From NCBI GenBank assembly GCA_965202625.1, contig CBDBBI010000010.1:576001-640000 (forward strand): a DNA stretch of 64,000 bases, written 5' to 3'. Numbering within the stretch: the stretch's first letter is position 1; every line of letters begins with the position of its first letter. The notes under the pieces are model-generated. The model searched no databases, was not told the origin of the DNA, and worked only from the letters and a program-made list of their open reading frames with translations. The stretch is from a bacterium (GTDB taxonomy: Bacteria; UBA8248). A program made the translations under genes and the position numbers. Shown here in pieces: positions 1 to 19,118 of this stretch.

Positions 1-1846
1 CGACGTAGCCCAGACGTATTATCGCGAGGTGGAAAGAAACGCCCTGTCCGACGCGAACCGACTTGCTCGTATGCTGGAGGGGACGCGCTCGGACATAATG
101 CGAAACCCTGCAGAAATCGCAAAAATATTAGAAACGGCAAGAAAGAACGCCGGAGCGGACATCATTCAGCTCTACGACAAAGGTCGGAAGGAAATCGTCT
201 CTGTAAAGCGGCCGAGTTTAGCACAATCTACCGGATTCTCGCCTTTGGTGGGATACGTGGATCAGGTGATTGACGGGGAGTCGCGCTCAAGCGTGGAGAA
301 TTGGGAGAAGGGAGACGCCGTCTATGGCGTGGAACCGCTGAGGGCGCAAAAAAAAGTAGTGGGATTTGTTGTCGTAACTAAATACATGTCCGGCCAGCTC
401 GTTGACCGGATCAGAGCCATATCAGATTCCTTTGTGGATTATAAAGAATTGGAACTGTCCAGAAACCCAATCAAGGCGAGCTATATCGTCACTTTTTTGG
501 TGATTACTTTGCTTATCCTGTTCGCTGCTATTTGGTTAGGCTTCTACCTCGCTCGCGGCATCACGGTTCCTATCGAAAAACTAGCAGAAGCCACTCGAGC
601 GGTCTCAGGTGGTAACCTCGAGCATCGCGTGGACGTGAAGGCAGATGGCGAGCTGGGCATCCTGATCGACGCATTCAACAGCATGACGGAAGAATTGTTG
701 GACAACAAAAAGAGAATTGAGCAATCTTCCGAAAACCTTCGCCGCTCCAATTTAGAAATCGATAGGAGACGCAGGTACATGGAGGCGATGCTCGAAAACA
801 TACGAACCGGCGTAATATCGACCGATCAGCGGGGGCGGGTCACCATTCTAAACAAAGCGGCCGGAGAGTTGCTGAACATCTCTCCACGGCATGCCGTCGG
901 GCAGATATTCAGCGAAGTTTTCGAAAGCGCACATCTCGAACCCATTCGCGAGTTGATGCGCTACATGAGAGGCCGGAAAGATGAAAATGTCTCGAAAAAA
1001 ATAGAGATGATGGCAAACAGCCGCGTGCTCACCCTGCAAACGAGCCTGACCCTCCTCAAAAACGCGAAAGGTGTCAGGCTCGGTGCGGTCATCGTGTTTG
1101 ACGACATGACAGCCCTGATACGCGCACAGAAGGTCGCTACGTGGCGGGAAGTCGCCCAAGGTATTGCGCATGAGATTAAAAATCCACTGACGCCGATTCA
1201 ACTCTCTACCCAGAGAATGAGAAAGAAATTTGAAAACGAAGCGTATGATTTCGCGGACATATTTGAAACGTGCACAAACACCATCATCCATCAAGTGACA
1301 AACCTGAAAGAAATGGTGAATAAATTCAGCCGGTTTGCGCGGATGCCCGATCCGATGCTCAGCCTTTGCGAGTTTGTTCCTCTTATCGAAGAGGTGGTAA
1401 ATTTATATCGCGGCGGGCAGGGAGACATGGCATTCTCCGCTCAAATCAGTGCCGAGAATGCATTCGTCATGGCGGACCCCGAGGAATTGCAACGCGTATT
1501 CATCAATTTGCTCAAAAATGCTTTCGAATCCCAAGAGGCCGAAGGCGGGGTAAACTTACAAGCTTGGGTAGAGCAGGACGGAAACATAATAGTTGTGGAA
1601 ATCGCCGACCAAGGCAAGGGGATATCAGAAGATATGAAAAGCCATGTGTTCGCGCCCTATTTTTCCACGAAGGCCAGAGGCTCCGGTTTGGGCCTGGCCA
1701 TTTGTTATCGCACCGTGGCTGATCACAATGGAACGATAAGCGTGCGCGACAACCATCCAGCAGGTTCCGTTTTTCGTGTAACGCTCCCTCTGGCGTCCGC
1801 CGTGAACGTCACGCCTAAAAAGCAAAGGGCGACCGCCATTGGATAG
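1..1846 (+). CDS. ntrY: NtrY-like HAMP/PAS sensor histidine kinase (5' end lies before the window)
   Basis: TM helix, HAMP and PAS regions; WREVAQGIAHEIKNPLTPIQLS H-box; NLLKNA, DQGKG, PYFSTK and GSGLGL boxes; frame open from position 2. Confidence 0.9.
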   Translation, partial: DVAQTYYREVERNALSDANRLARMLEGTRSDIMRNPAEIAKILETARKNAGADIIQLYDKGRKEIVSVKRPSLAQSTGFSPLVGYVDQVIDGESRSSVENWEKGDAVYGVEPLRAQKKVVGFVVVTKYMSGQLVDRIRAISDSFVDYKELELSRNPIKASYIVTFLVITLLILFAAIWLGFYLARGITVPIEKLAEATRAVSGGNLEHRVDVKADGELGILIDAFNSMTEELLDNKKRIEQSSENLRRSNLEIDRRRRYMEAMLENIRTGVISTDQRGRVTILNKAAGELLNISPRHAVGQIFSEVFESAHLEPIRELMRYMRGRKDENVSKKIEMMANSRVLTLQTSLTLLKNAKGVRLGAVIVFDDMTALIRAQKVATWREVAQGIAHEIKNPLTPIQLSTQRMRKKFENEAYDFADIFETCTNTIIHQVTNLKEMVNKFSRFARMPDPMLSLCEFVPLIEEVVNLYRGGQGDMAFSAQISAENAFVMADPEELQRVFINLLKNAFESQEAEGGVNLQAWVEQDGNIIVVEIADQGKGISEDMKSHVFAPYFSTKARGSGLGLAICYRTVADHNGTISVRDNHPAGSVFRVTLPLASAVNVTPKKQRATAIG

Positions 1847-3215
1847 GGGATATGTCCTCATCGTCGACGATGAGAGTGAAATACGCCTGAGCCTGGAGGC
1901 TGTCTTGCAGGATGAGGGCTATCGCGTAGAGAAGGCCGAGTCCGGCTCCGCCGCGCTCCAGTTGATTCAAGCAGAAGCCCCGGATGTGGTTTTGGTTGAC
2001 GTGTGGATGCCGGAGATGGACGGAATCAAAGCTCTGAAGGCGGTCAAGGGGCGCAACTCGGCTATTGAGGTCGTTGTCATGTCGGGGCACGGCAACATTG
2101 ATGCCGCCGTCGCCGCCACGAAACTAGGCGCTTTTCATTTTATTGAAAAACCCCTCTCCATCGATACGGTTTTGGGTGTTGTCGACTCCGCCGTTAAAGC
2201 GCGAAGAACAAAGGAGAGCCAGGCGGATGCTTCCCCTAACGCGAGACATAGCGACGACGCCGAAAGGACGCGAGGGGCCCGGACGGACATTTCAGATTCT
2301 GGCACAGGCGTGTCGGCTACTCACTTAAGACAAAAGATCAAAGCATATGATATAGAGGCACCGCCTGTGTCCACGAAGGTTGAGGGTGCAAATCAGCGGA
2401 GTATATCGAAGAGCGTCGTACTGCATGGCAGAGGTCTGCACTCAGGGCTGAAGACTGGATTGCTCATTGAACCCCTGCCGCCGGGGAGCGGAATACATTT
2501 TGGCAGCCTGACGAGCCCGGAGACCGTAAGAGCGAGCGTCGATTTCGTGGATGATACGAATCATGCGACAAACTTGCGCAACGGGTTGGTGGAGGCGCGC
2601 ACAATAGAGCATCTCATGAGTGCACTGCACGCATACGAGGTGAGCAACATCCTCATTAAAGTTGGCGAGGAAGTACCCGTCATGGATGGTTCGGCGGTGG
2701 AGTTTTGCCGCTTGCTCGAAGAGGCGGGTATAGAGGAGCAAGAGGAGAAACGCCAGGAATTGTGGGTGGACAAAGCCTATGAGGTGGGAGGGCCGGGGGG
2801 GGATGGGGGCTATATACGTATCGAGCCGGCGATCTCGTTTTCGATTTCCTGTCTCGTGGAATATCCCCAGCCCATTGGGAGGCAAGCCTATCTCTATGAA
2901 CACAAGAACGTGCTGGGTTTTCAGGAAAAAATTGCGCGAGCCCGCACGTTTGGCTTCGTATCTGAACTGGGTGCACTCGAAGAGATGGGCTTGGCCGAAG
3001 GTGGTCGTTGGGACAACGCGATTCTCGTGGACGAGGAGCGCATCGTGAATACGGAATTGCGATTCCCCGACGAGTTCGTCCGCCATAAAATTCTCGACGT
3101 TATGGGGGACCTTTATTTGGCCGGGTGGCCTATTCGAGGAAAAGTGACCGCCGAAAGAAGCGGGCACCGGCACAATGTCGCCTTGGTGAAAAAATTGGTG
3201 GAGGCCCAGGGCTGA
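1839..3215 (+). CDS. lpxC: Fusion of an NtrX-type receiver domain and UDP-3-O-acyl-GlcNAc deacetylase LpxC
   Basis: N-terminal VLIVDDE/VDVWMP/SGHG/FIEKP receiver; ~65-aa linker; LpxC motifs GRGLHSG, TIEHLMSAL, ARTFGF, RHKILD, SGH. Confidence 0.92.
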   Translation: MDRGYVLIVDDESEIRLSLEAVLQDEGYRVEKAESGSAALQLIQAEAPDVVLVDVWMPEMDGIKALKAVKGRNSAIEVVVMSGHGNIDAAVAATKLGAFHFIEKPLSIDTVLGVVDSAVKARRTKESQADASPNARHSDDAERTRGARTDISDSGTGVSATHLRQKIKAYDIEAPPVSTKVEGANQRSISKSVVLHGRGLHSGLKTGLLIEPLPPGSGIHFGSLTSPETVRASVDFVDDTNHATNLRNGLVEARTIEHLMSALHAYEVSNILIKVGEEVPVMDGSAVEFCRLLEEAGIEEQEEKRQELWVDKAYEVGGPGGDGGYIRIEPAISFSISCLVEYPQPIGRQAYLYEHKNVLGFQEKIARARTFGFVSELGALEEMGLAEGGRWDNAILVDEERIVNTELRFPDEFVRHKILDVMGDLYLAGWPIRGKVTAERSGHRHNVALVKKLVEAQG

Positions 3216-3257
3216 TTCTGTTTTTACGCCCGGTGATTCCGCCCGCCGCTTCATGGA

Positions 3258-4319
3258 ATGTCTCTTTTGGATGCGCATCATATTACATACAAAGGCTCGG
3301 GCGTTGACGTAAGCGCAGGAGAGAACTTCGTTCGCGCCATCGTCCAGACGGTAAAGTCCACCCATGAGAGCCAAAGCGGCCGCGTCCTGAAAGGGACGGG
3401 GGACTTTGCCGGCTTGTTCCACCTAGGCAAGGATTACGAAGACCCCGTTCTCGTTTCAGGTGCCGACGGCGTTGGGACGAAATTGCTTCTGGCCCAACGA
3501 CTCGACCGCCATGGCTCGATCGGGGTTGATTTAGTCGCCATGTGCGTCAACGACGTCCTGACCACGGGAGCGATTCCTCTTTTTTTTCTGGACTATATTG
3601 CGGCGGGCAAGATGGACCAAAGGATATTGGTCGAGGTTGTATCCGGCATCGCCCAAGGCTGTCGAGAGGCGCAGTGTGCCCTCCTCGGGGGCGAGATGGC
3701 TGAGATGCCCGATCTATATCCGCCCGGTACATATGACCTTGCGGGCTTTGCCGTAGGCGTGGTTGAGCGAAGGCGATTAGACGGCGCCGCGCCCGTGGAA
3801 GCGGGCGACGCCATCCTCGCCCTCCCTTCGTCAGGAGTCCATAGCAACGGGTATTCCTTGCTACGGAAGATATTCGATTCCAAGGGAAAACGAGAGGCTG
3901 CGACACAAAGGCTCGCCGCTCCGGTTGAAGACGCTCTCTTGGAGCCGACCCGCATTTACGTCAACGGGTCGGAGGTCATTCGAAGAGAGGAAGGGATCAG
4001 CGGAATCGCGCACATCACGGGCGGGGGGATCGCAGGAAACGTGAGCCGCATGATGCGAGATGGTCTGCAAGCGAGGCTTTATCCGGAAAAATGGCCCATG
4101 CCGGAGATATTCTCACTGATTCAGGAGTTCGGCCCACTCGAGGCGGCGGAGATGTATCGCACTTTCAACATGGGGCTGGGTTTCGTTTTTCTCGTAAAGG
4201 CGGAACGGGCCGAACCTTTGCTCGAGCGTCTCAGAAACACGGGCGAAGAGGCCATGGTGGTCGGAGAGGTAGTCAAAAGACCGAAAGGCGGCCAAGCCGT
4301 CGTCGTCAAGGGTAGATGA
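3258..4319 (+). CDS. purM: Phosphoribosylformylglycinamidine cyclo-ligase
   Basis: DGVGTK, DLVAMCVND, GVHSNGYSL, HITGGG, RTFNMG motifs. Confidence 0.97.
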   Translation: MSLLDAHHITYKGSGVDVSAGENFVRAIVQTVKSTHESQSGRVLKGTGDFAGLFHLGKDYEDPVLVSGADGVGTKLLLAQRLDRHGSIGVDLVAMCVNDVLTTGAIPLFFLDYIAAGKMDQRILVEVVSGIAQGCREAQCALLGGEMAEMPDLYPPGTYDLAGFAVGVVERRRLDGAAPVEAGDAILALPSSGVHSNGYSLLRKIFDSKGKREAATQRLAAPVEDALLEPTRIYVNGSEVIRREEGISGIAHITGGGIAGNVSRMMRDGLQARLYPEKWPMPEIFSLIQEFGPLEAAEMYRTFNMGLGFVFLVKAERAEPLLERLRNTGEEAMVVGEVVKRPKGGQAVVVKGR

Positions 4320-4321
4320 AC

Positions 4322-4972
4322 ATGTCTCTAAAAACGCGATTGCGCGTGGGCGTTTTGGCTTCCGGACGGGGGTCGAATCTACAATCTCTCATCAAGGCGT
4401 GTCGGGATGCGGATTTTCCGGCAAGAGTCGCTTTAGTGTTGAGCGACAAGAAAAAGGCGCACGCGCTTAGGCGTGCGGCGGACGCGGGGATACAGAATCA
4501 ACTCATGGAGCCGAAGGAGGATAATTTTTATCCGAGAATCGGCGATGAAATGGAGCGTTGCGGAATCGATCTCATCTGTTGCGCTGGCTTCATGCGAATT
4601 TTGCCTCCGGCGTTCGTGGAACGTTTTGCGGGAAAAATCATCAACATTCATCCCTCGCTTCTACCGAGCTTCCCTGGCCTTCGCGCGCAAAAACAAGCTC
4701 TGGACGCTGGTGTTAGAGTATCTGGCTGCACGGTCCACTTTGTGGATGAGGGAGTGGATACGGGACCGATTGTTTTGCAGGCTGCCGTGCCGGTGTATCC
4801 CCAAGATGACGAGAAAACCTTGTCAGAGAGAATTCTCGCCTATGAACACCGCGCGTATCCATTGGCTGTGCGACTCATCGCCGAGGGATGCGCTCAATAC
4901 GCAAGGGGCGCACTTGTGGATGAGGGCGGTTTCATCTCGCCCGTCTCCGAATCATCACCCACAAAAGGATAA
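4322..4972 (+). CDS. purN: Phosphoribosylglycinamide formyltransferase
   Basis: SGRGSNLQ, INIHPSLLP, GCTVHFV, DTGPI; follows purM. Confidence 0.97.
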   Translation: MSLKTRLRVGVLASGRGSNLQSLIKACRDADFPARVALVLSDKKKAHALRRAADAGIQNQLMEPKEDNFYPRIGDEMERCGIDLICCAGFMRILPPAFVERFAGKIINIHPSLLPSFPGLRAQKQALDAGVRVSGCTVHFVDEGVDTGPIVLQAAVPVYPQDDEKTLSERILAYEHRAYPLAVRLIAEGCAQYARGALVDEGGFISPVSESSPTKG

Positions 4973-4980
4973 ATAACGCT

Positions 4981-5712
4981 TTGCGAAGACGGTTTTTTTT
5001 GACGCTCGTATTTGGTTTTTCATTTCTGGCGCTTTCCAAAATGTTCTTCCTCTCCGCGCCGGCGGCCGAAGAGTCATCGCGCCTGAGTGAAGAGCGAATC
5101 ATCGGGGCGCTCCAGAAAAAATATGAGGCGCTCGCGTCTTTGCGAGCCTCCTTTGAACAAGAAAACGAATTCAAGTCCCTTGGACAAACGACACGCTCTA
5201 GCGGGCAGCTTCTGTTGAGCAAGCCGAGCAAGCTGCGTGTGGAGTATACCAGTCCCGACAAGCAGATTCTGGTCTCTGACGGCATTACGCTTTGGCTCTA
5301 CACAGCTCGTTTCAATCAAGTGGTGGTCTCGAAGATTGAGCGCATTGGGCTTGGGGCCACTCCTTTACTATTCTTGGCGGGAAGGGGGAATTTGAGGAAA
5401 AATTTTAATATCCTCGTCGAAGAAGTCGGAGTCGCCAAGCGAAGCGAAGGAATTTGGAGGGCGGGGCAACCGCATCGCATTCGCTTGGAGCCCAAATTTC
5501 CGGGTGCTTCGTTTCGACGGATGTGGATGGAGGTAGAGCCCGAGAGTTTCCGAATTCTCGCTTTGGCGTATGTCGATGCCCTCGGCAACAAGAGCCGCCT
5601 GCGGTTTTCAAACGTGAAAGAAGATATCAGCGTAACTGGAGGGGAATTTAGTTTTGTCGCGCCGCCTCAGGTCGAAGTTCTTCATATGCCGCTCCGAGAG
5701 GAGCACCAGTAA
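4981..5712 (+). CDS. lolA: Outer-membrane lipoprotein carrier LolA family protein
   Basis: Signal peptide, ASFEQ, KPSKLRVEY, ILVSDG..LWLY, C-terminal FSFVAP. Confidence 0.85.
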   Translation: MRRRFFLTLVFGFSFLALSKMFFLSAPAAEESSRLSEERIIGALQKKYEALASLRASFEQENEFKSLGQTTRSSGQLLLSKPSKLRVEYTSPDKQILVSDGITLWLYTARFNQVVVSKIERIGLGATPLLFLAGRGNLRKNFNILVEEVGVAKRSEGIWRAGQPHRIRLEPKFPGASFRRMWMEVEPESFRILALAYVDALGNKSRLRFSNVKEDISVTGGEFSFVAPPQVEVLHMPLREEHQ

Positions 5713-5730: not shown

Positions 5731-6930
5731 ATGGCGATGCAAATCATCAACTGGGTGATGGGTTTTGGACAGACAATTTTTTGGGCCGTTCTGGTACTTG
5801 GGCTGCTCATTTTCATCCATGAATTGGGACACCATCTCTTAGCCAAGTGGCTCAAGATCGGTGTCGTCACGTTTTCGCTGGGCTTTGGACGGCGTATTTG
5901 GGGTTTTCAAAAGGGAGAGACGGAATATCGCGTATCACTCATCCCTTTGGGCGGTTATGTCAAGCTCTTAGGCGAAGACCCGGAGGCACATCCCGATGAC
6001 GCCAGCCAGCCCAAAACGCCGGATGAGCCGGAGAAGTCTTTTTACCTGCGTCCCGTAAGCCATAGGCTGGCGGTCATCTCTGCGGGGCCGATATTCAACA
6101 TCATGCTGGCGATACTGCTGAGCTGGGGGCTGCACCTTGGCGGCATTCCGGTGCCTGGCACTTGGGTGGGGGAAGTTTTGCCCGACACGCCGGCCCAAAG
6201 GGCGAACCTCAAAGCCGGAGATCACATCGTGGCCATTGACGGACGGCCAGTTCAAAAATGGTCTGAACTCGTAGAAATTGTCCGTAAAAGTGCTGGCAAA
6301 AAACTCGTGCTAAAGATCGAGCGCGGCCGTAAAACATCCTTCGAGACGACCATCGTTCCGATGTCGAAGAGCGCAACAGGAGAATATCTGGACCATGGCC
6401 GAATCGGCATCCGCATCGGCCAAGGCGCTTATACCGAGCGGTTCGGATTCGTCGAGGCATTGGGGAGGGGTTTCGAGCAAAGCTACCACATCGCCAAGCT
6501 GACGGTCGTGACTCTGTATTCGATGCTCATGAAGACAGTGCCCGCAGATATCGGCGGGCCGATTCGCATCTCCATCGTGGCCGCCGAACAAGCCCAGCGC
6601 GGACTCCGCTACCTCGTGATGTTCACGATTTTGCTCAGCGTAAACCTAGCGATTCTGAACTTGCTGCCCATTCCGGTTCTCGATGGCGGACACATTTTTT
6701 TCCTGTTCATCGAAGGCTTGCGGGGAAAACCCGTCAGTTTAAGAATTCGGGAGATGGCCATGCAGCTGGGCACAGTCTTGCTCATCGGTTTGATGATCTT
6801 TGCCACTTATAAGGATAGCGTGTATTATCTCTTTAGAGGAGAAGTGCCATCCATCACGCAAGAGAAGCCGAGTGCGGAAAGGAAAGAAGCGTCAGAATTG
6901 ACTCTTGAGAAAAAAAAGGGCCAACAATAG
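5731..6930 (+). CDS. rseP: RIP metalloprotease RseP (M50 + PDZ)
   Basis: HELGH, IPLGGYVK, AGPIFN, NLLPIPVLDGG. Confidence 0.95.
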   Translation: MAMQIINWVMGFGQTIFWAVLVLGLLIFIHELGHHLLAKWLKIGVVTFSLGFGRRIWGFQKGETEYRVSLIPLGGYVKLLGEDPEAHPDDASQPKTPDEPEKSFYLRPVSHRLAVISAGPIFNIMLAILLSWGLHLGGIPVPGTWVGEVLPDTPAQRANLKAGDHIVAIDGRPVQKWSELVEIVRKSAGKKLVLKIERGRKTSFETTIVPMSKSATGEYLDHGRIGIRIGQGAYTERFGFVEALGRGFEQSYHIAKLTVVTLYSMLMKTVPADIGGPIRISIVAAEQAQRGLRYLVMFTILLSVNLAILNLLPIPVLDGGHIFFLFIEGLRGKPVSLRIREMAMQLGTVLLIGLMIFATYKDSVYYLFRGEVPSITQEKPSAERKEASELTLEKKKGQQ

Positions 6931-10451: not shown

Positions 10452-10528
10452 GGCGGCGTAGCTCAACCGGTTAGAGCATACGGCTCATATCCGTAGTGTT
10501 GGGGGTTCAAGTCCCTCCGCCGCTACCA
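10452..10528 (+). tRNA. tRNA with CAT anticodon (elongator Met most likely; Ile2 not excluded)
   Basis: GGCGGCG/CGCCGCT acceptor stem, TACGG-CTCATAT-CCGTA anticodon arm, GGTTCAAGTCC T-loop, encoded CCA. Confidence 0.95.
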
Positions 10529-10558
10529 TTTCCTCGCCGTCCAGGCAGGACGTTCTCA

Positions 10559-12046
10559 ATGGCGACGAACGCCGTGCAAACTTCTCTATTGAAAGCCAGA
10601 AAAGCGTTTGAGGCTAAGGTGCGGAAAGGTCTCAAAAAATCCGCTCACGAGTCGAATGCCTCGCCCTTACTCGTTGGCTTTTCGGGTGGGGCGGATTCCA
10701 CCGCTCTTTTGGTGTCCCTCAAATCGCTTTTGCCGGAATCCCAGCCCCTGTGCGCGGTTCACGTTGAGCACGGGCTCCGAGGCTATCGCTCTGTGCGAGA
10801 CGCCGCTCATTCCGAGAATGTATGCCGAGAATATGGCATTCATTTCCGCTGTGAGCGTGTTGAAGTGTCTCGGGTGGCGCAATGTGGTCTAGAGAGGGCC
10901 GCTCGAGAATCGAGACGCTCGGCTTTTCTGGCCGTCGCCGAAGAAATGGGTGCCGATACGCTCGCCTTGGCTCACAACAGGGATGAGCAAGCCGAAACCG
11001 TGCTCATGCGCTTGTTCGAGGGCGCTGGCGCGCGAGGTATTTCAGGCATGAAATGGTGGGTCCCTCTTTCGTCAAAAGAGACGGAGGGGTTGCGCATCAT
11101 CCGGCCCTTGCTTGATGCGTCGCGCGCTGAAATTTTAACCTATCTGGATGCGCGAGGAGTTCGCTGGATCGAAGATGAGACGAACGAGGACGAGGGCCGC
11201 TTGAGAAACCGGATACGCAAACAGATCATGCCGGCGATTCGAGAGAATTTTGGGGATGCAGCTATCTGCGGAATCGCGAAGAGTGCGGAAATCTCAACGA
11301 CTCTCGCCTTTTTGGCAGAGGAGCTGAGTGTGGATGCGAGTACAAAGTTCGTTCATGAAGATGACGGGAAACTGATCGTTTTTCCGCTGCGGGAGGTAAG
11401 GAGCCTCAAGCAGGCGATCAGGGCCGGAGTGTGGCGCGCGGTGTTGGAAATGCACAGAGACGGCGCGCGTGTGCGCGTCCGAAGGCACGCCCTCAGAAAG
11501 TGGATCGAGGCACTAGATGGCCTCGCAACCGGGGATAATCCCTCGGGCGCTTTGCGCTTGCCGGGTGGATTGGAGGCGAGAAGGGAGTATGACCGACTCT
11601 TTTTGGGGCCTCTTCAGCACGACTTAAAATTGTCCGAGGAGCAAAGGCTTCGGGTTCCCGGAAAAACGGTTCACCTCTCATTGGGTCTTGAAATCGAAGC
11701 TTCTCTTGGCTTCGGGCATCGTTGCGTGGGGCCGTGGGAGGCGCGTCTTAACCTAGAAAATCTGGGTGTGGATGCCCGCGTCCGCACCCGGCGCGATGGG
11801 GATCGCTTCCATCCTTTAGGCCGCAAAAAGGAGCGGAAGTTGAAAGATTACTTCATGGAACAAAAGATACCGAAATTCACGAGAAACAAAATGCCTCTGC
11901 TTGCCGTGGAAGGGAAAGTGGCTTGGATAATCGGACATCAGATTTCAGCGGAATTCGCACTCGATGAGAATGCGAAGGGGGGGGTAACACTCAAGACGTT
12001 GCCCAGAAAGGAGGACGACAAACCTCTCGCTTCTCTGAGCGAGTGA
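10559..12046 (+). CDS. tilS: tRNA(Ile)-lysidine synthetase
   Basis: SGGADS PP-loop, HGLR, AHNRDEQAET, IIRPLL, RNRIR, TilS-C domain. Confidence 0.95.
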   Translation: MATNAVQTSLLKARKAFEAKVRKGLKKSAHESNASPLLVGFSGGADSTALLVSLKSLLPESQPLCAVHVEHGLRGYRSVRDAAHSENVCREYGIHFRCERVEVSRVAQCGLERAARESRRSAFLAVAEEMGADTLALAHNRDEQAETVLMRLFEGAGARGISGMKWWVPLSSKETEGLRIIRPLLDASRAEILTYLDARGVRWIEDETNEDEGRLRNRIRKQIMPAIRENFGDAAICGIAKSAEISTTLAFLAEELSVDASTKFVHEDDGKLIVFPLREVRSLKQAIRAGVWRAVLEMHRDGARVRVRRHALRKWIEALDGLATGDNPSGALRLPGGLEARREYDRLFLGPLQHDLKLSEEQRLRVPGKTVHLSLGLEIEASLGFGHRCVGPWEARLNLENLGVDARVRTRRDGDRFHPLGRKKERKLKDYFMEQKIPKFTRNKMPLLAVEGKVAWIIGHQISAEFALDENAKGGVTLKTLPRKEDDKPLASLSE

Positions 12047-12201
12047 GCTTTTGAAGCCCCTCGTTTTTCTTTCGCTGGCCGGGCGACTTTGACGTTGACA
12101 CACTGATATAAGGCTGATGTTTATAGACGGATGAAAAAAATCCTGATACCTTATTCTTAATGGATCAAGGAGGCACTTATCCGAAAGAGAAGGGACGTAT
12201 T

Positions 12202-14121
12202 TTGAACCAATTTTACAAAAATTTGGCTCTTTGGCTAATCATAGGCCTGATAATGGTAGGTTTGTTCCAGGCTTTCAATGGCCCGCACTCAATGGACAGG
12301 ACGGTCGTCTATAGCGATTTTCTGAAAGCGGTCGCTGACGGCCAAGTGAGCGAAGTGGTCGTTCAGGGAGACGATATCCGTGGCCGCTACCTCAGCGGAA
12401 GGGCGTTTCACACCTATGCCCCCAAGGATCCGAAACTCATTGACACCCTCAGGGCCAAGGGCGTCCGCATCACGGCACAACCCGTGGGACAAAACGCCTG
12501 GTACATGAACGTGCTCCTCAGCTGGCTACCCATGCTGGTGATGCTGGGTGTCTGGATTTTCTTCATGCGTCAAATGCAAATGGGCGGCTCTAAAGCTCTA
12601 TCCTTTGGAAAGAGCAAGGCACGCATGATGCCGGATTCCGCGAAGAAGAAGATTACGTTCAAGGACGTGGCCGGCATTCAGGAGGCGAAGGAAGAGCTGG
12701 AGGAGTTGGTTGATTTTCTTCGCGATCCGCAAAAATTCACGCGCTTGGGTGCGCGGATTCCAAAGGGCGTTCTCATGGTCGGCCCCCCGGGAACGGGAAA
12801 AACCCTTCTCGCACGCGCCATCGCCGGCGAGGCCGACGTGCCGTTTTTCTCCATCAGTGGGTCGAGTTTCGTGGAGATGTTCGTCGGTGTCGGGGCGTCG
12901 AGAGTTCGAGATTTATTCGAACAGGGCAAGTCAAACGCGCCGTGCATTATTTTCATCGATGAGATTGACGCCGTGGGGCGGCACAGGGGTGCTGGCCTTG
13001 GTGGCGGCCACGATGAGCGCGAACAGACGCTCAATCAACTCCTCGTCGAGATGGACGGCTTTGAGTCGAACGACGGCGTTATCTTGATGGCGGCGACGAA
13101 CCGCCCGGACGTGCTGGATCCGGCCCTCCTCAGGCCGGGCCGCTTCGATCGCCAGATAGTCGTCTCCTTGCCCGACATCAAGGGACGTTTGGCGATTTTG
13201 AAGGTGCACGCCAAGAAAGTCCCACTGGATGAATCCGTCGATCTGAATCTCATCGCGCGAGGTACGCCTCGATTCGCTGGTGCCGATCTGGCGAACCTTT
13301 TAAACGAATCCGCGCTTTTAGCCGCGCGCCGGGGAAAACGTTCCGTTCAAAATGAAGATTTGATGGAGGCGAAAGACAAGGTTTTGATGGGCAAGGAGCG
13401 GCGCAGCATCGCACTCAGCGAAAAGGAAAAAAGGAGCACGGCCTACCATGAGGCGGGGCACGCCCTCGTTTCGTTGCTAATACCCGGGACGGACCCCGTC
13501 GAGAAGGTGACCATCATCCCGAGAGGTTTCTCGTTGGGGAGCACATGGTCCTCGCCCCTTGAAGATCGCTACAGCAACGACAAGACGTTTCTGACGAACC
13601 AGCTCGCCTGCTTGATGGGCGGGCGGGCGGCGGAGATGCTCGTCTTCAAGGAGTTAACGACCGGAGCGAAAGCCGACATCCAGACGTCGACCGATCTGGC
13701 CAGAAGCATGATTTGCGAATGGGGGATGAGCGATAAACTTGGTCCCTTGGCCTATGGTAAAAAACATGAGCAAATTTTCTTGGGCCGGGAGATATCCCAG
13801 CACAGGGATTATAGCGATCAAGTGGCCCTAGAGATCGACAACGAAGTGAAGCACATGGTCACCTCAAACTACGATAAGGCGTATAAATTGCTCGAGCAGA
13901 ACCGGGATAAGCTCGATTTGCTCGCCAATGCCCTGCTTGAATATGAAACCATCGATCTCGAAGACATTGAGTCTTTGATGGAAACCGGAAAAATCATCAG
14001 GCCCCGGAAACGAAAAGACGGAATGAATAAAGGAAGAGCCTCGGTCTCTCCCCAACCTAGGGACCCCCCCCATGAGGATCCGCAGGCGTCGCCGACGGAC
14101 CTGGCACCCGGCCAAGCCTAG
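12202..14121 (+). CDS. ftsH: ATP-dependent zinc metalloprotease FtsH
   Basis: Two TMs, [28 protein letters not shown]. Confidence 0.98.
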
Positions 14122-17128: not shown

Positions 17129-17719
17129 GTGAAAATCCTGCTACTTGGCTTACTGGTCGCCATTGGCGGGACCATTTCCTATTTCTTCATAGGGTCTTCG
17201 AATTATGAGTTCCGCATTGGAGGCGTTTCGTTCACGGGAATGGATGCGAACCTCAATATGGACGAAGTGCACGTCGTTCAAAACGAAAAAGGCGTGAAGG
17301 AATGGGAGCTTTGGGCGGATTCCGCCAAGGTGTATCGCAAAAAAGATGTGACGATTTTGAAGAACTTGCGCCTGCGTTTTTATCCACGAGATGGCGAACC
17401 AGCGGACGTGAGCGCGCAGAGAGGAGCCATGGAGAATAAAAGCCGAAACATGAAGATCAGCGGCAACGTCGTTATCTTAGCGTCGAACGGCGTGTCCATG
17501 AAAACTGACTCTTTGAATTTTCATCCCGAGAAAAAACGTATTGACTCGGATGCGCGAGTTCTGATGGAAGGCGCGCGTTTCCGTCTAAGCGGCACAGGTC
17601 TGTGGGGACGCACCGATTTAGGGCGTTATAAATTGAAGCATAAAGTGAGTGCCACTATATACAAAGTGAACGAGACATCTCGATATCGACGGCGAGAAAA
17701 TCAGCCTGTCCACAACTGA
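17129..17719 (+). CDS. lptC: LPS export protein LptC
   Basis: N-terminal TM, beta-jellyroll pattern (WELWADSA, ISGNV, KTDSL); first gene of the lptCAB run. Confidence 0.85.
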   Translation: MKILLLGLLVAIGGTISYFFIGSSNYEFRIGGVSFTGMDANLNMDEVHVVQNEKGVKEWELWADSAKVYRKKDVTILKNLRLRFYPRDGEPADVSAQRGAMENKSRNMKISGNVVILASNGVSMKTDSLNFHPEKKRIDSDARVLMEGARFRLSGTGLWGRTDLGRYKLKHKVSATIYKVNETSRYRRRENQPVHN

Positions 17720-17727
17720 GTTGGCAA

Positions 17728-18351
17728 ATGCTGATCGGAACGGAACAACTTATCATGAGAACGAAAATCTATTCCATTGGGCATCTTCGTTTCGTTTGTG
17801 CGGTATTGTGTACTGGGTTTTTGCTGTGGAGCGGGGCGAGCACGCACGGACAGGAGGCAGACCACAAAAGCCAGCCAAACAGTGGGAAGCCGCTTCACAT
17901 CACCTCCGATAAAATGGAAGTGGACAACCCGAAGAACTTCATCGTCTTTATCGGAAACGTGAAGGCAAACCAGGGAGATATGCGTATTCAGGCCAAGCGT
18001 CTTGAGGTGTATACAAAGCAGGCCAAGCGAAAAACAGGAGCGGAACCCCGGGCGAGTGCAGCGGACAGAGCAGGGGAGATCGATAGAATTGTGGCCATCG
18101 GGAATGTGCTGATGGAGCAAGAGAAAAGAAGGTTTGCCACTGCGGATCGCCTTGAATACCACGAATCCACCGGCGTTGCCGTCCTGACGGGCAACCCTCG
18201 CGCCTGGGAAGGAAACAACCAGTTGGTTGGCGACAAAATAGAGTTGAACATGAGAAAAGATACAACAATCGTTCACGGTTCGCCTCGCCAGAGAGTCAGC
18301 GTTACCCTTTTTCCTTCCAGCGAGGCGCTTCCCCGCAAGAAATCGAAATAG
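17728..18351 (+). CDS. lptA: LPS transport periplasmic protein LptA
   Basis: ITSDKME, FIGNVKANQG, AIGNV, LTGNP. Confidence 0.88.
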   Translation: MLIGTEQLIMRTKIYSIGHLRFVCAVLCTGFLLWSGASTHGQEADHKSQPNSGKPLHITSDKMEVDNPKNFIVFIGNVKANQGDMRIQAKRLEVYTKQAKRKTGAEPRASAADRAGEIDRIVAIGNVLMEQEKRRFATADRLEYHESTGVAVLTGNPRAWEGNNQLVGDKIELNMRKDTTIVHGSPRQRVSVTLFPSSEALPRKKSK

Positions 18352-18353
18352 CC

Positions 18354-19118
18354 ATGGCTGCGCTCGCCGGCCTTAGATTAGCGGGACGCGCCGGTTCTTC
18401 TTCCATTCTCACCACTGGATTGACGAAAATCTATTCCGGTCGAGAGGTTGTCTGCGGAGTGGATCTCGAGTTGCGTCCTAGAGAAATCGTGGGATTGCTT
18501 GGGCCGAACGGGGCCGGCAAGACGACGATATTTTATATGATCGTTGGCCTAGTCGCTCCGGATGCGGGAAAAGTTTTGTTGAACGGCATTGATATCACCG
18601 AGCTGCCCATGTATGTGCGCGCTAGGAGGGGAGTCAGTTACTTGCCGCAGGAAGCGTCTGTATTTCGTCGCCTTTCCGTGAGAGACAACATTATGGCGGT
18701 ACTCGAGTTAGGTCTTGACGATTCGAGGCGCCGCAAGGAGCGCCTGCATGAAATTCTTGAGGATCTGCGCATCCAGGACATCCAATCCCTAAAAGGATAC
18801 GCCCTCTCAGGTGGTGAGCGTAGGCGCGTAGAAATTGCGCGGGCCTTGGCTACCAATCCCACTTTCATGTTGCTTGACGAACCTTTCGCTGGTATCGACC
18901 CCATCGTGGTCCACGATGTGCAAGAAATCGTGGTGGATTTAAAAAACCGTGGAATCGGAATCGTAATTACAGACCACAATGTGCAGGAAACGCTTCGGAT
19001 ATCTGACAGGGCGTATGTCATTAACGAAGGTCGGATACTGAAGTCCGGCATACCCGAGGAAATCGCCGTGAGCGATGAAGTCCGCGCGGCCTATCTGGGC
19101 GAGAAATTTCGGCTCTAA
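18354..19118 (+). CDS. lptB: LPS export ABC ATPase LptB
   Basis: GPNGAGKTT, YLPQEASVFR, LSGGERRRVEIAR, DEPFAGIDP, ITDHNV. Confidence 0.97.
   Translation: MAALAGLRLAGRAGSSSILTTGLTKIYSGREVVCGVDLELRPREIVGLLGPNGAGKTTIFYMIVGLVAPDAGKVLLNGIDITELPMYVRARRGVSYLPQEASVFRRLSVRDNIMAVLELGLDDSRRRKERLHEILEDLRIQDIQSLKGYALSGGERRRVEIARALATNPTFMLLDEPFAGIDPIVVHDVQEIVVDLKNRGIGIVITDHNVQETLRISDRAYVINEGRILKSGIPEEIAVSDEVRAAYLGEKFRL

Follow-up and report, generated by a model that had tools for sequence, protein, structure and literature searches.

A receiver-LpxC fusion protein encoded beside ntrY: a candidate response regulator with a lipid A enzyme as output

Results

The DNA analysed here is a 64,000-nucleotide (nt) stretch of a bacterial contig (GTDB lineage UBA8248; GenBank assembly GCA_965202625.1, contig CBDBBI010000010.1, positions 576,001 to 640,000 of the forward strand), referred to below as the window. 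Close to its start, a gene that overlaps the end of the kinase gene ntrY encodes a response-regulator receiver (REC) fused to LpxC. The features of this locus, in window coordinates and with protein lengths in amino acids (aa), are as follows.

1..1846, plus strand: 3′ part of ntrY; the whole gene (754 aa; L002:5582-7846) begins 419 nt before the window
1839..3215, plus strand: REC-LpxC fusion open reading frame (ORF), 458 aa (ORF list, Pfam, NCBIfam)
1854..2174, plus strand: receiver of NtrX type, aa 6-112 (Pfam; best NCBIfam model NtrX)
2175..2393, plus strand: charged/polar linker, aa 113-185, between the Pfam domains
2367..2369, plus strand: in-frame GTG, Val177, with AGAGG at 2354-2358, 8 nt upstream
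2394..3200, plus strand: LpxC domain, aa 186-454 (Pfam, NCBIfam, alignment to solved chains)
3258..4972, plus strand: purM and purN, directly 3′ of the fusion

The fusion is a single ORF whose TTG start overlaps the last 8 nt of ntrY, the ntrY stop codon (TAG) lying at 1844-1846. Within a 469-aa stop-to-stop frame, no possible start precedes this TTG, and no other one preserves strand β1 of the receiver (YVLIVDDE). Pfam Response_reg (PF00072) matched the N-terminal part with E = 6.6e-30 (104 bits; cut-off 30.2), and LpxC (PF03331) matched the C-terminal part with E = 3.9e-81 (272.9 bits; cut-off 27) over positions 1-267 of the 268-position profile. The NCBIfam lpxC model TIGR00325 scored 236.5 bits against a cut-off of 187.25, and the C-terminal part of the fusion is by these models a full-length LpxC. 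The top receiver model was NtrX (NF051870), which gave 121.7 bits over profile positions 4-131 of 452 only; this is below its cut-off of 600, and the fusion is not a full-length NtrX match. A Pfam search of the 458-aa protein at E ≤ 0.01 returned no AAA+ or helix-turn-helix (HTH) family (PF00158, PF25601, PF02954/HTH_8). The model for bifunctional LpxC-FabZ (NF009667) matched the LpxC part alone and scored 204.8 bits, short of its cut-off of 465, so the protein does not belong to that family. We conclude that the fusion belongs fully to both the LpxC and the receiver family and is not NtrX as that family is defined.

The linker measures about 60-73 aa, depending on where the end of the receiver is placed. 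At the other end, the protein terminates 4 aa past the Pfam LpxC domain and has no C-terminal tail; solved Pseudomonas- and E. coli-type LpxC chains extend some 20-25 aa further. A preliminary description of this DNA, made from its letters and ORFs, had proposed one 458-aa ORF overlapping the stop of an NtrY-like kinase, a charged linker of ~65 aa, loss of the AAA+ and HTH domains of NtrX, and the motifs VDVWMP, SGHG, EKP, TIEH, HKILD and SGH. The ORF list and domain searches bear out this architecture, and all six motifs are present in the translation; the linker also holds a remnant of the HTH, described below. On the opposite strand, a 326-aa ORF (2442-3422, minus strand) covers the LpxC domain; most likely it merely shadows the GC-rich coding strand.

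The residues on which both halves of the protein depend are complete. The receiver has the acidic pair D10/D11, the phospho-acceptor Asp54 (codon 1998-2000), S82 and K104, and this residue set together with the PF00072 match identifies it as a receiver. We compared it with 58 short-form fusions, that is, proteins consisting only of receiver and LpxC, at identities down to 36%: D10, D11, D54 and K104 are invariant in 58/58, and S82 is kept in at least 90%. Alignment of the LpxC part to solved Pseudomonas-type chains placed the metal and catalytic residues at E257, H258, T370, H416, K417, D420, D424 and H443, with E257-H258 in TIEH, H416...D420 in HKILD and H443 in SGH. We take the zinc ligands to be His, His and Asp and the catalytic residues Glu and His (E77/H78, H237/D241 and H264 in Pseudomonas numbering). 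All of these except T370 are invariant across the same 58 short forms, and E257-H258, H416...D420 and H443 are also invariant in the 13 fusions of a separate alignment. The LpxC part further carries fusion-specific positions: V194, T206, G207, T240, H264, L272, K274, C290, G347, residue 367, L396, Y426 and N446. Residue 367 is Pro in most fusions and Arg in the window protein, and the position of K274 is Glu in 92% of 25 stand-alone LpxC relatives.

The kinase upstream of the fusion is a genuine NtrY, with NtrY_N (37 bits; cut-off 23.2), HAMP, PAS, HisKA and HATPase_c domains. Just upstream of it, outside the window, lies a gene for a DUF4390 (PlrP-like) protein (L002:4949-5578; 88 bits), and mutS also precedes ntrY; the genomic partnership of ntrY and the fusion, DUF4390 included, is thus present at this locus. 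The whole genome (99.69% complete) contains one LpxC match, one LpxD match and one LpxB match, together with lptCAB. It also contains a single NtrY_N match. Only one further receiver-AAA+-HTH regulator is encoded (L095:3796-5175), an intact protein paired with a PAS kinase of its own. The receiver of this regulator, the next-best in the genome, is 35% identical to that of the fusion, and among NCBIfam models the regulator is matched best by AtoC and NtrC, not by NtrX. The second lpxC and the full ntrX that the preliminary description had suggested looking for were not found in this genome. Since the genome has one NtrY_N protein and the other regulator is AtoC/NtrC-like with a kinase of its own, the fusion appears to be the only evident output of NtrY, and, as judged by these models, NtrY is without any other evident NtrX-type partner.

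To place the window protein among its relatives, we surveyed LpxC in 51 genomes of its phylum. LpxC was found in 50/51, and none of the 51 showed a second intact copy. The 45 full-length matches fall into frames of 646-755 aa (35 matches), 432-538 aa (9 matches) and 356 aa (one match, in a genome only 67% complete). All 45 frames are too long for a stand-alone LpxC, so the fusion looks fixed in the phylum; the presence of the receiver was checked directly only in the genus-survey genomes, and for G041-G057 (apart from G023) it is read from frame length. Across the phylum as sampled, LpxC thus seems to be encoded solely as an NtrX-LpxC or REC-LpxC gene. Within the genus, 20 of the 22 other species have intact frames of 719-743 aa and the remaining two are fragmented (contig ends in G003, a break in G015). 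No short frame occurs among the 22 congeners, which makes the window protein the sole short form of 23 species. Its receiver is 72-74% identical to those of most congeners and keeps all functional residues. The order ntrY, fusion, purM, purN was found in 11/11 loci of the genus and its sister genus. Elsewhere, ntrY lies directly upstream in 11/38 short-form loci and 1/10 long-form loci. In four Nitrospinota-labelled metagenome-assembled genomes (MAGs) with long fusions (L036, L038, L042 and L052), the upstream 5-6 kb carries genes that resemble greA and a methyltransferase (by eye, from their N-termini), and purN and lolA still follow.

Similar proteins are widespread. Among the 120 best database clusters, 84 are long forms of ~686-741 aa with a receiver, Sigma54_activat or AAA-lid (often also HTH_8) and LpxC; 32 are short forms of 424-458 aa with only receiver and LpxC; and four are N-terminally truncated. 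The closest relatives in this set (70-78% identity) are all long, and some are named Nitrospinae or Tectomicrobia by their sources. Of the best 150 representatives at 50% identity, 21 have the complete short architecture and 15 the complete long one, and there are fragments besides. A query of the ESM Atlas with P0047, a short homologue, gave 17 clusters with 50 or more members in which every member (100%) has both domains; the largest have 500, 128 and 83 members, and their commonest phyla are Myxococcota, Binatota and Acidobacteriota. Classification of 208 sequences showed the two-domain frame kept in 71 short and 104 long forms. Records with short fusions are labelled Deltaproteobacteria, Syntrophobacter, Syntrophorhabdus, Binatia, Thermoanaerobaculia, Holophagae, Aminicenantes, Thermodesulfovibrionia, Desulfopila sp. 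IMCC35006 and Myxococcota, among others, and short forms also occur in records labelled Acidobacteriota and Thermodesulfobacteriota. A number of the labels on short-fusion records have the look of binning errors. The idea, raised as a potential refutation in the preliminary description, that the fusion is unique to this assembly is therefore wrong: it recurs across the phylum and in several others.

We examined 80 genome loci, comprising 38 short fusions, 10 long fusions, 28 stand-alone LpxC genes and four that are broken or cut (L034, L049, L050 and L060). A frameshift divides the fusion into neighbouring frames in three MAG contigs (L034:3005-5670, L049:5977-7256 and L050:5590-7365); these are probably assembly errors and not natural split genes. 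Three loci with typical fusions, one long and two short, carry the labels Promethearchaeota archaeon (L033), Enterobacteriaceae (L024) and Patescibacteria (L046); these labels look like binning contamination and not true hosts. In three of five other genomes tested, the fusion is again the sole LpxC. The other two (L043, the isolate Desulfopila sp. IMCC35006, and L041) have free LpxC frames of 318-330 aa plus a divergent, long-branch REC-LpxC paralogue.

Three of the 28 stand-alone loci have the unfused order lpxC-DUF4390-ntrY-ntrX (L059:5875-11192, L067:5992-11108 and L075:5944-11490), and in L082:5107-6819 lpxC and the DUF4390 gene are followed by the contig end. The regulator of the unfused loci is a full sigma-54-type NtrX-like protein, with GAFTGA and the Walker B 'DE' in L059 and L075. 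The window receiver is 50% identical (60 of 121 positions) to the receiver of the L059 regulator. This unfused order links NtrYX to lpxC independently of the fusion and looks like the state that preceded it.

We next consider how the transcription-factor half has changed. In a tree of receiver plus LpxC (30 rows), the window protein sits in a clade with 100/100 support together with four long forms. The long/short label changes six times on this tree, at least four of these changes being forced by strongly supported branches, and a single origin of the long/short state was recovered in 0/200 bootstrap trees. The short forms as one clade are rejected (approximately unbiased test, p-AU ~1e-56, for groups named after inspection of the tree). 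In a 125-row tree the stand-alone clade adjoins the short forms, with weak deep branches and no root. We conclude from these phylogenies that AAA+/HTH presence has changed independently several times. The scores of the AAA+ domain to Sigma54_activat are graded:

unfused NtrX-like regulator beside lpxC-DUF4390-ntrY (L059): 242.6 bits
fused, L032 (L032:3813-6017): 130 bits
fused, P0074: 107 bits
fused, P0077: 105 bits
congener, P0002: 38.9 bits, over profile positions 3-61 only
fused, P0046: 25.6 bits

The Walker A motif is present in 104/104 long fusions and a GAFTGA-like loop in 0/104. By a crude regular expression, the Walker B 'DE' pattern is found in four of the 104, and 28 have no match at all. 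The AAA+ domain of the fused forms is, by these sequence measures, degenerate in graded steps. Residues of the receiver and of LpxC stay invariant while AAA+ and HTH decay, which suggests that selection keeps the receiver plus the enzyme; the sequences indicate that the transcription-factor half is dispensable and that the phospho-acceptor and the enzyme are not.

Alignment to ~710-aa relatives shows what happened at the window locus. The receiver is colinear with the long relatives up to ~aa 131, at which point (aa 131/132, ~nt 2232) about 250 residues are gone, comprising the entire AAA+ domain and the beginning of the HTH. The final HTH helix is still recognisable in the linker (LRQKIKAYDIE, against LKRKIKAYNIE in the relatives), and a second small deletion precedes it. 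This Fis-type remnant spans ~aa 141-174 (nt 2259-2360; ...GVSATHLRQKIKAYDIE). Against an HTH profile built from the long forms, the window linker scored 18.1 bits, compared with a maximum of 5.8 over 1420 shuffled linkers; none of the other 70 short-form linkers scored above the 99th percentile of shuffles with the same profile. We conclude from this alignment evidence that the window protein is a lineage-specific, in-frame deletion derivative of a ~710-aa REC-AAA+-HTH-LpxC gene. The long-to-short direction is clear for this protein. The NtrX-LpxC/REC-LpxC fusion, which recurs across the sampled phylum and in several others, is old and predates the short form in the window.

Contigs from two sponge-metagenome runs of a different study bridge both deletion sites with more than 31 nt on each side: X6 covers 1920-2292 and X5 covers 2161-2376, both with 0 differences. 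A run bearing the organism's own label matches 1700-3300 without difference; it is a possible source of the assembly and hence not independent. Misassembly of the short form was considered and is rejected, since the second-study contigs span the junction without differences. The preliminary description had allowed for a recent deletion or misassembly of ntrX-lpxC. The deletion part of that suggestion holds, as an in-frame event in an already fused gene, and the misassembly part falls. Because the deletion removed the transcription-factor part and kept receiver and enzyme, it does not undercut the proposed role of the protein.

Whether ntrY, the fusion and purM are co-transcribed has a weak hint in favour. 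No terminator-like site on the plus strand lies between the three genes, and no sigma-70-like promoter was found in window positions 1-5000, with a consensus that may not fit the host phylum. RNA contigs of run X7 cover 1700-1845, 1897-2081 and 3047-3269 only, which is too sparse to establish transcription of the whole fusion or a transcript start. Further downstream, all on the plus strand, are these envelope and protease genes:

4981-5712, plus strand: lolA
5731-6930, plus strand: rseP
12160-14121, plus strand: ftsH
17129-19118, plus strand: lptC, lptA and lptB

Their co-orientation with the fusion had been pointed out before and stands. The full order 3′ of the fusion is purM, purN, lolA, rseP, ispG, proS, tRNA(CAT), tilS, ftsH, pdxJ, an NAD(P)HX repair gene, lptC, lptA, lptB and rpoN. 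The tRNA with a CAT anticodon (ARAGORN: tRNA-Met; 10452-10528, plus strand) overlaps the start of the listed tilS ORF (10496-12046, plus strand). TilS makes lysidine on tRNA-Ile2, which likewise has a CAT anticodon; the tRNA may be TilS's own substrate, and the real tilS start probably lies further downstream than listed.

Discussion

The data described above are most readily explained if the fusion is a response regulator with LpxC as its output, such that NtrY would control LpxC directly through the receiver. We give this reading a probability of about 0.6, from sequence comparison. It is supported by the adjacency and overlap of ntrY, by the presence in the genome of a sole NtrY and a sole LpxC, and by the invariant phospho-site, kept while the transcription-factor part decays. 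It is further supported by the apparent fixation of the fusion in the phylum and by an independent link between NtrYX and lpxC, seen in the unfused gene order and in published work on R. sphaeroides and D. vulgaris (below); the comparative data strengthen the preliminary suggestion that the output of the kinase may be the enzyme itself. We also count in its favour that two features of FtsH/LapB control in E. coli, the C-terminal tail and a LapB match, were not found in the fusion or the genome, respectively. The LapB zinc-ribbon model (PF18073) had 0 matches in the genome, and it is a short, unspecific model that in a control matched 10/14 genomes, Gram-positives included.

We envisage that REC-LpxC works in a three-part module with the membrane kinase NtrY and a periplasmic DUF4390 protein. 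The latter two would respond to an envelope or redox signal, and NtrY would accordingly phosphorylate or dephosphorylate Asp54; the amount of LpxC activity in the cell would then follow from the receiver's state. By analogy with CheB, the unphosphorylated receiver might dock on the catalytic domain and be released by phosphorylation; alternatively, phosphorylation might drive dimerisation. Sequence alone cannot tell which receiver state is active. That DUF4390, NtrY and REC-LpxC form a self-contained envelope-sensing circuit, whose sole output is LpxC catalytic activity, is a more tentative proposal, for which we would offer slightly less than even odds. For the DUF4390 protein there is a precedent in Bordetella, where PlrP is reported, with genetic support, as a third component restraining the phosphatase activity of the NtrY-type kinase PlrS (PMC13001219).

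Several observations weigh against direct control by NtrY. Phosphotransfer to the fusion, and any effect of the receiver on the activity, stability or location of LpxC, are inferred from sequence. The linkers of the short forms (22-62 aa) are unconserved, as would suit a loose tether; they give no indication of a fixed allosteric interface. An adjacent ntrY is missing from 27/38 short-form loci, some of them cut by contig ends, and the four long fusions from Nitrospinota-labelled MAGs have no upstream ntrY. The free LpxC in two of the five other genomes tested (L043 and L041) means that the fusion need not carry the essential flux, and an internal start within the fusion is possible. Finally, the published links between NtrYX and lpxC are transcriptional or indirect. 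In R. sphaeroides, deletion of ntrYX raised lpxC messenger RNA 8.8-fold and increased lipopolysaccharide, with no NtrX site at lpxC (PMC7240162). In D. vulgaris, lpxC is reported as the single mapped target of the regulator DVU2934, and in S. fumaroxidans lpxC lies directly upstream of the operon orthologous to that of DVU2934 (both PMC3333781); the bearing of this on the fusion presumes that DVU2934 is orthologous to the window receiver.

If the receiver does govern the enzyme, it might do so by another last step: a degradation signal recognised by FtsH, Lon or ClpXP could be uncovered or masked by phosphorylation, so that the receiver would set the amount of LpxC protein. This is the main rival, and we regard it as unlikely. 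A receiver protein with a role of this kind exists in RssB, an adaptor-type regulator in regulated proteolysis. In its favour, E. coli adjusts its LpxC level through proteolysis by FtsH (PMC6339880), a co-oriented ftsH gene is found 9 kb beyond the fusion, and a protease might begin degradation at the linker, which is long and variable and is probably disordered. However, the fusion lacks the C-terminal tail that FtsH degradation needs in E. coli (cited in PMC3333781), the weak LapB-type model has no match in the genome, and the proximity of ftsH is of little weight because eight unrelated genes and a tRNA gene lie in between. It is more doubtful that the enzyme is not regulated at all, the fusion being a historical accident that co-expresses or tethers a constitutively active LpxC, with the receiver acting as a phosphate sink for NtrY, a dimeriser or a tether to the membrane kinase. 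The unconserved linkers, the persistence of the fusion without an adjacent ntrY in several lineages and the second, free LpxC retained by some genomes would all be expected in that case. Yet a receiver without a role would not keep its phospho-site invariant, and D10, D11, D54 and K104 are unchanged in all 58 diverged sequences while AAA+ and HTH decay or vanish repeatedly; the fusion is, moreover, the only evident output of NtrY in the genome.

Two further possibilities concern the gene itself. A separate LpxC of 282 aa could be translated from the GTG at 2367 (Val177), leaving the receiver as a decaying leftover of ntrX. This GTG is in frame, is preceded by the Shine-Dalgarno-like AGAGG and stands nine codons before the LpxC domain, in a linker where a former HTH is decaying. 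We nevertheless consider an internal start very improbable, given that the GTG is not conserved (the closest relative has Ala at the aligned position), that the receiver has kept its similarity to those of the congeners and every functional residue, and that 71 short and 104 long forms among the 208 classified sequences retain the two-domain frame. An assembly or binning artefact that joined two genes or dropped the AAA+ region is hardly credible. The window protein is the sole short form in its genus and its exact sequence forms a one-member cluster, as an artefact might; but the second-study contigs bridge the junction with no differences, the linker shows no clean join but diverged remnant sequence in which a further small deletion has occurred, and the frame is intact.

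Control of LpxC by NtrY through the fused receiver can be compared with known systems. The locus resembles NtrY/NtrX with DUF4390 (PlrP) in its gene order (DUF4390-ntrY-regulator), in the domains of the kinase and in having NtrX as the top receiver model. In P0002 and L032, two long relatives, the N-terminal 420-440 aa likewise score best against NtrX; scores to the NtrX model are below the cut-off in all proteins tested, including the unfused L059 regulator and the long forms. Unlike NtrX, the window regulator has no AAA+ domain and no working HTH, and LpxC stands in their place. CheB is a receiver-methylesterase, and PleD and WspR (GGDEF) and RpfG (HD-GYP) are other regulators that combine a receiver with an enzyme. 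Like these, the fusion joins an N-terminal receiver through a flexible linker to a C-terminal catalytic domain, and by analogy the output of its phosphorelay would be enzyme activity; its catalytic domain, however, is unrelated to theirs and comes from central envelope biosynthesis rather than from signalling. In E. coli, lpxC sits at the end of the cell-division gene cluster. The fusion belongs to the same family as the stand-alone E. coli LpxC, has the complete catalytic set and is its genome's single LpxC, but it has an N-terminal receiver and no C-terminal tail, its gene follows ntrY, and its genome has no match to the (weak) LapB zinc-ribbon model. LpxC-FabZ is another natural fusion and shows that the enzyme tolerates partners; its partner is C-terminal and metabolic, whereas here an N-terminal signalling domain is attached. 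We rate the fusion as belonging to a kind already known, the REC-enzyme response regulators, with an output that is new and physiologically central.

A search of open-access papers and preprints found no description of a receiver-LpxC or NtrX-LpxC fusion, in agreement with the earlier remark that no characterised example was known, and the words 'fused' and 'response regulator' are absent from a 2025 review of lipid A regulation (PMC12444477). Many proteins of this kind are present in databases, where they carry automatically assigned names. Together, the unfused lpxC-DUF4390-ntrY-ntrX loci, the NtrX-LpxC proteins with decaying AAA+ domains and the REC-LpxC proteins make up a graded natural series that is useful for studying how the output of a signalling protein changes, and the window protein is the one short form in it that still bears the scar of the deletion. 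Being cultured and having both forms of LpxC, the L043 isolate could lend itself to work on the contribution of the fused copy.

Flux into lipid A is governed by LpxC, whose excess or shortage is lethal in the model organisms studied. To our knowledge, how LpxC is balanced outside the enterobacteria is largely open. A receiver wired to LpxC, if confirmed, would add a new principle to the control of outer-membrane biogenesis and a new class to the outputs of response regulators. If the module is in addition a self-contained circuit, the repeated shedding of AAA+ and HTH would mark a transcription factor becoming a pure enzyme switch.

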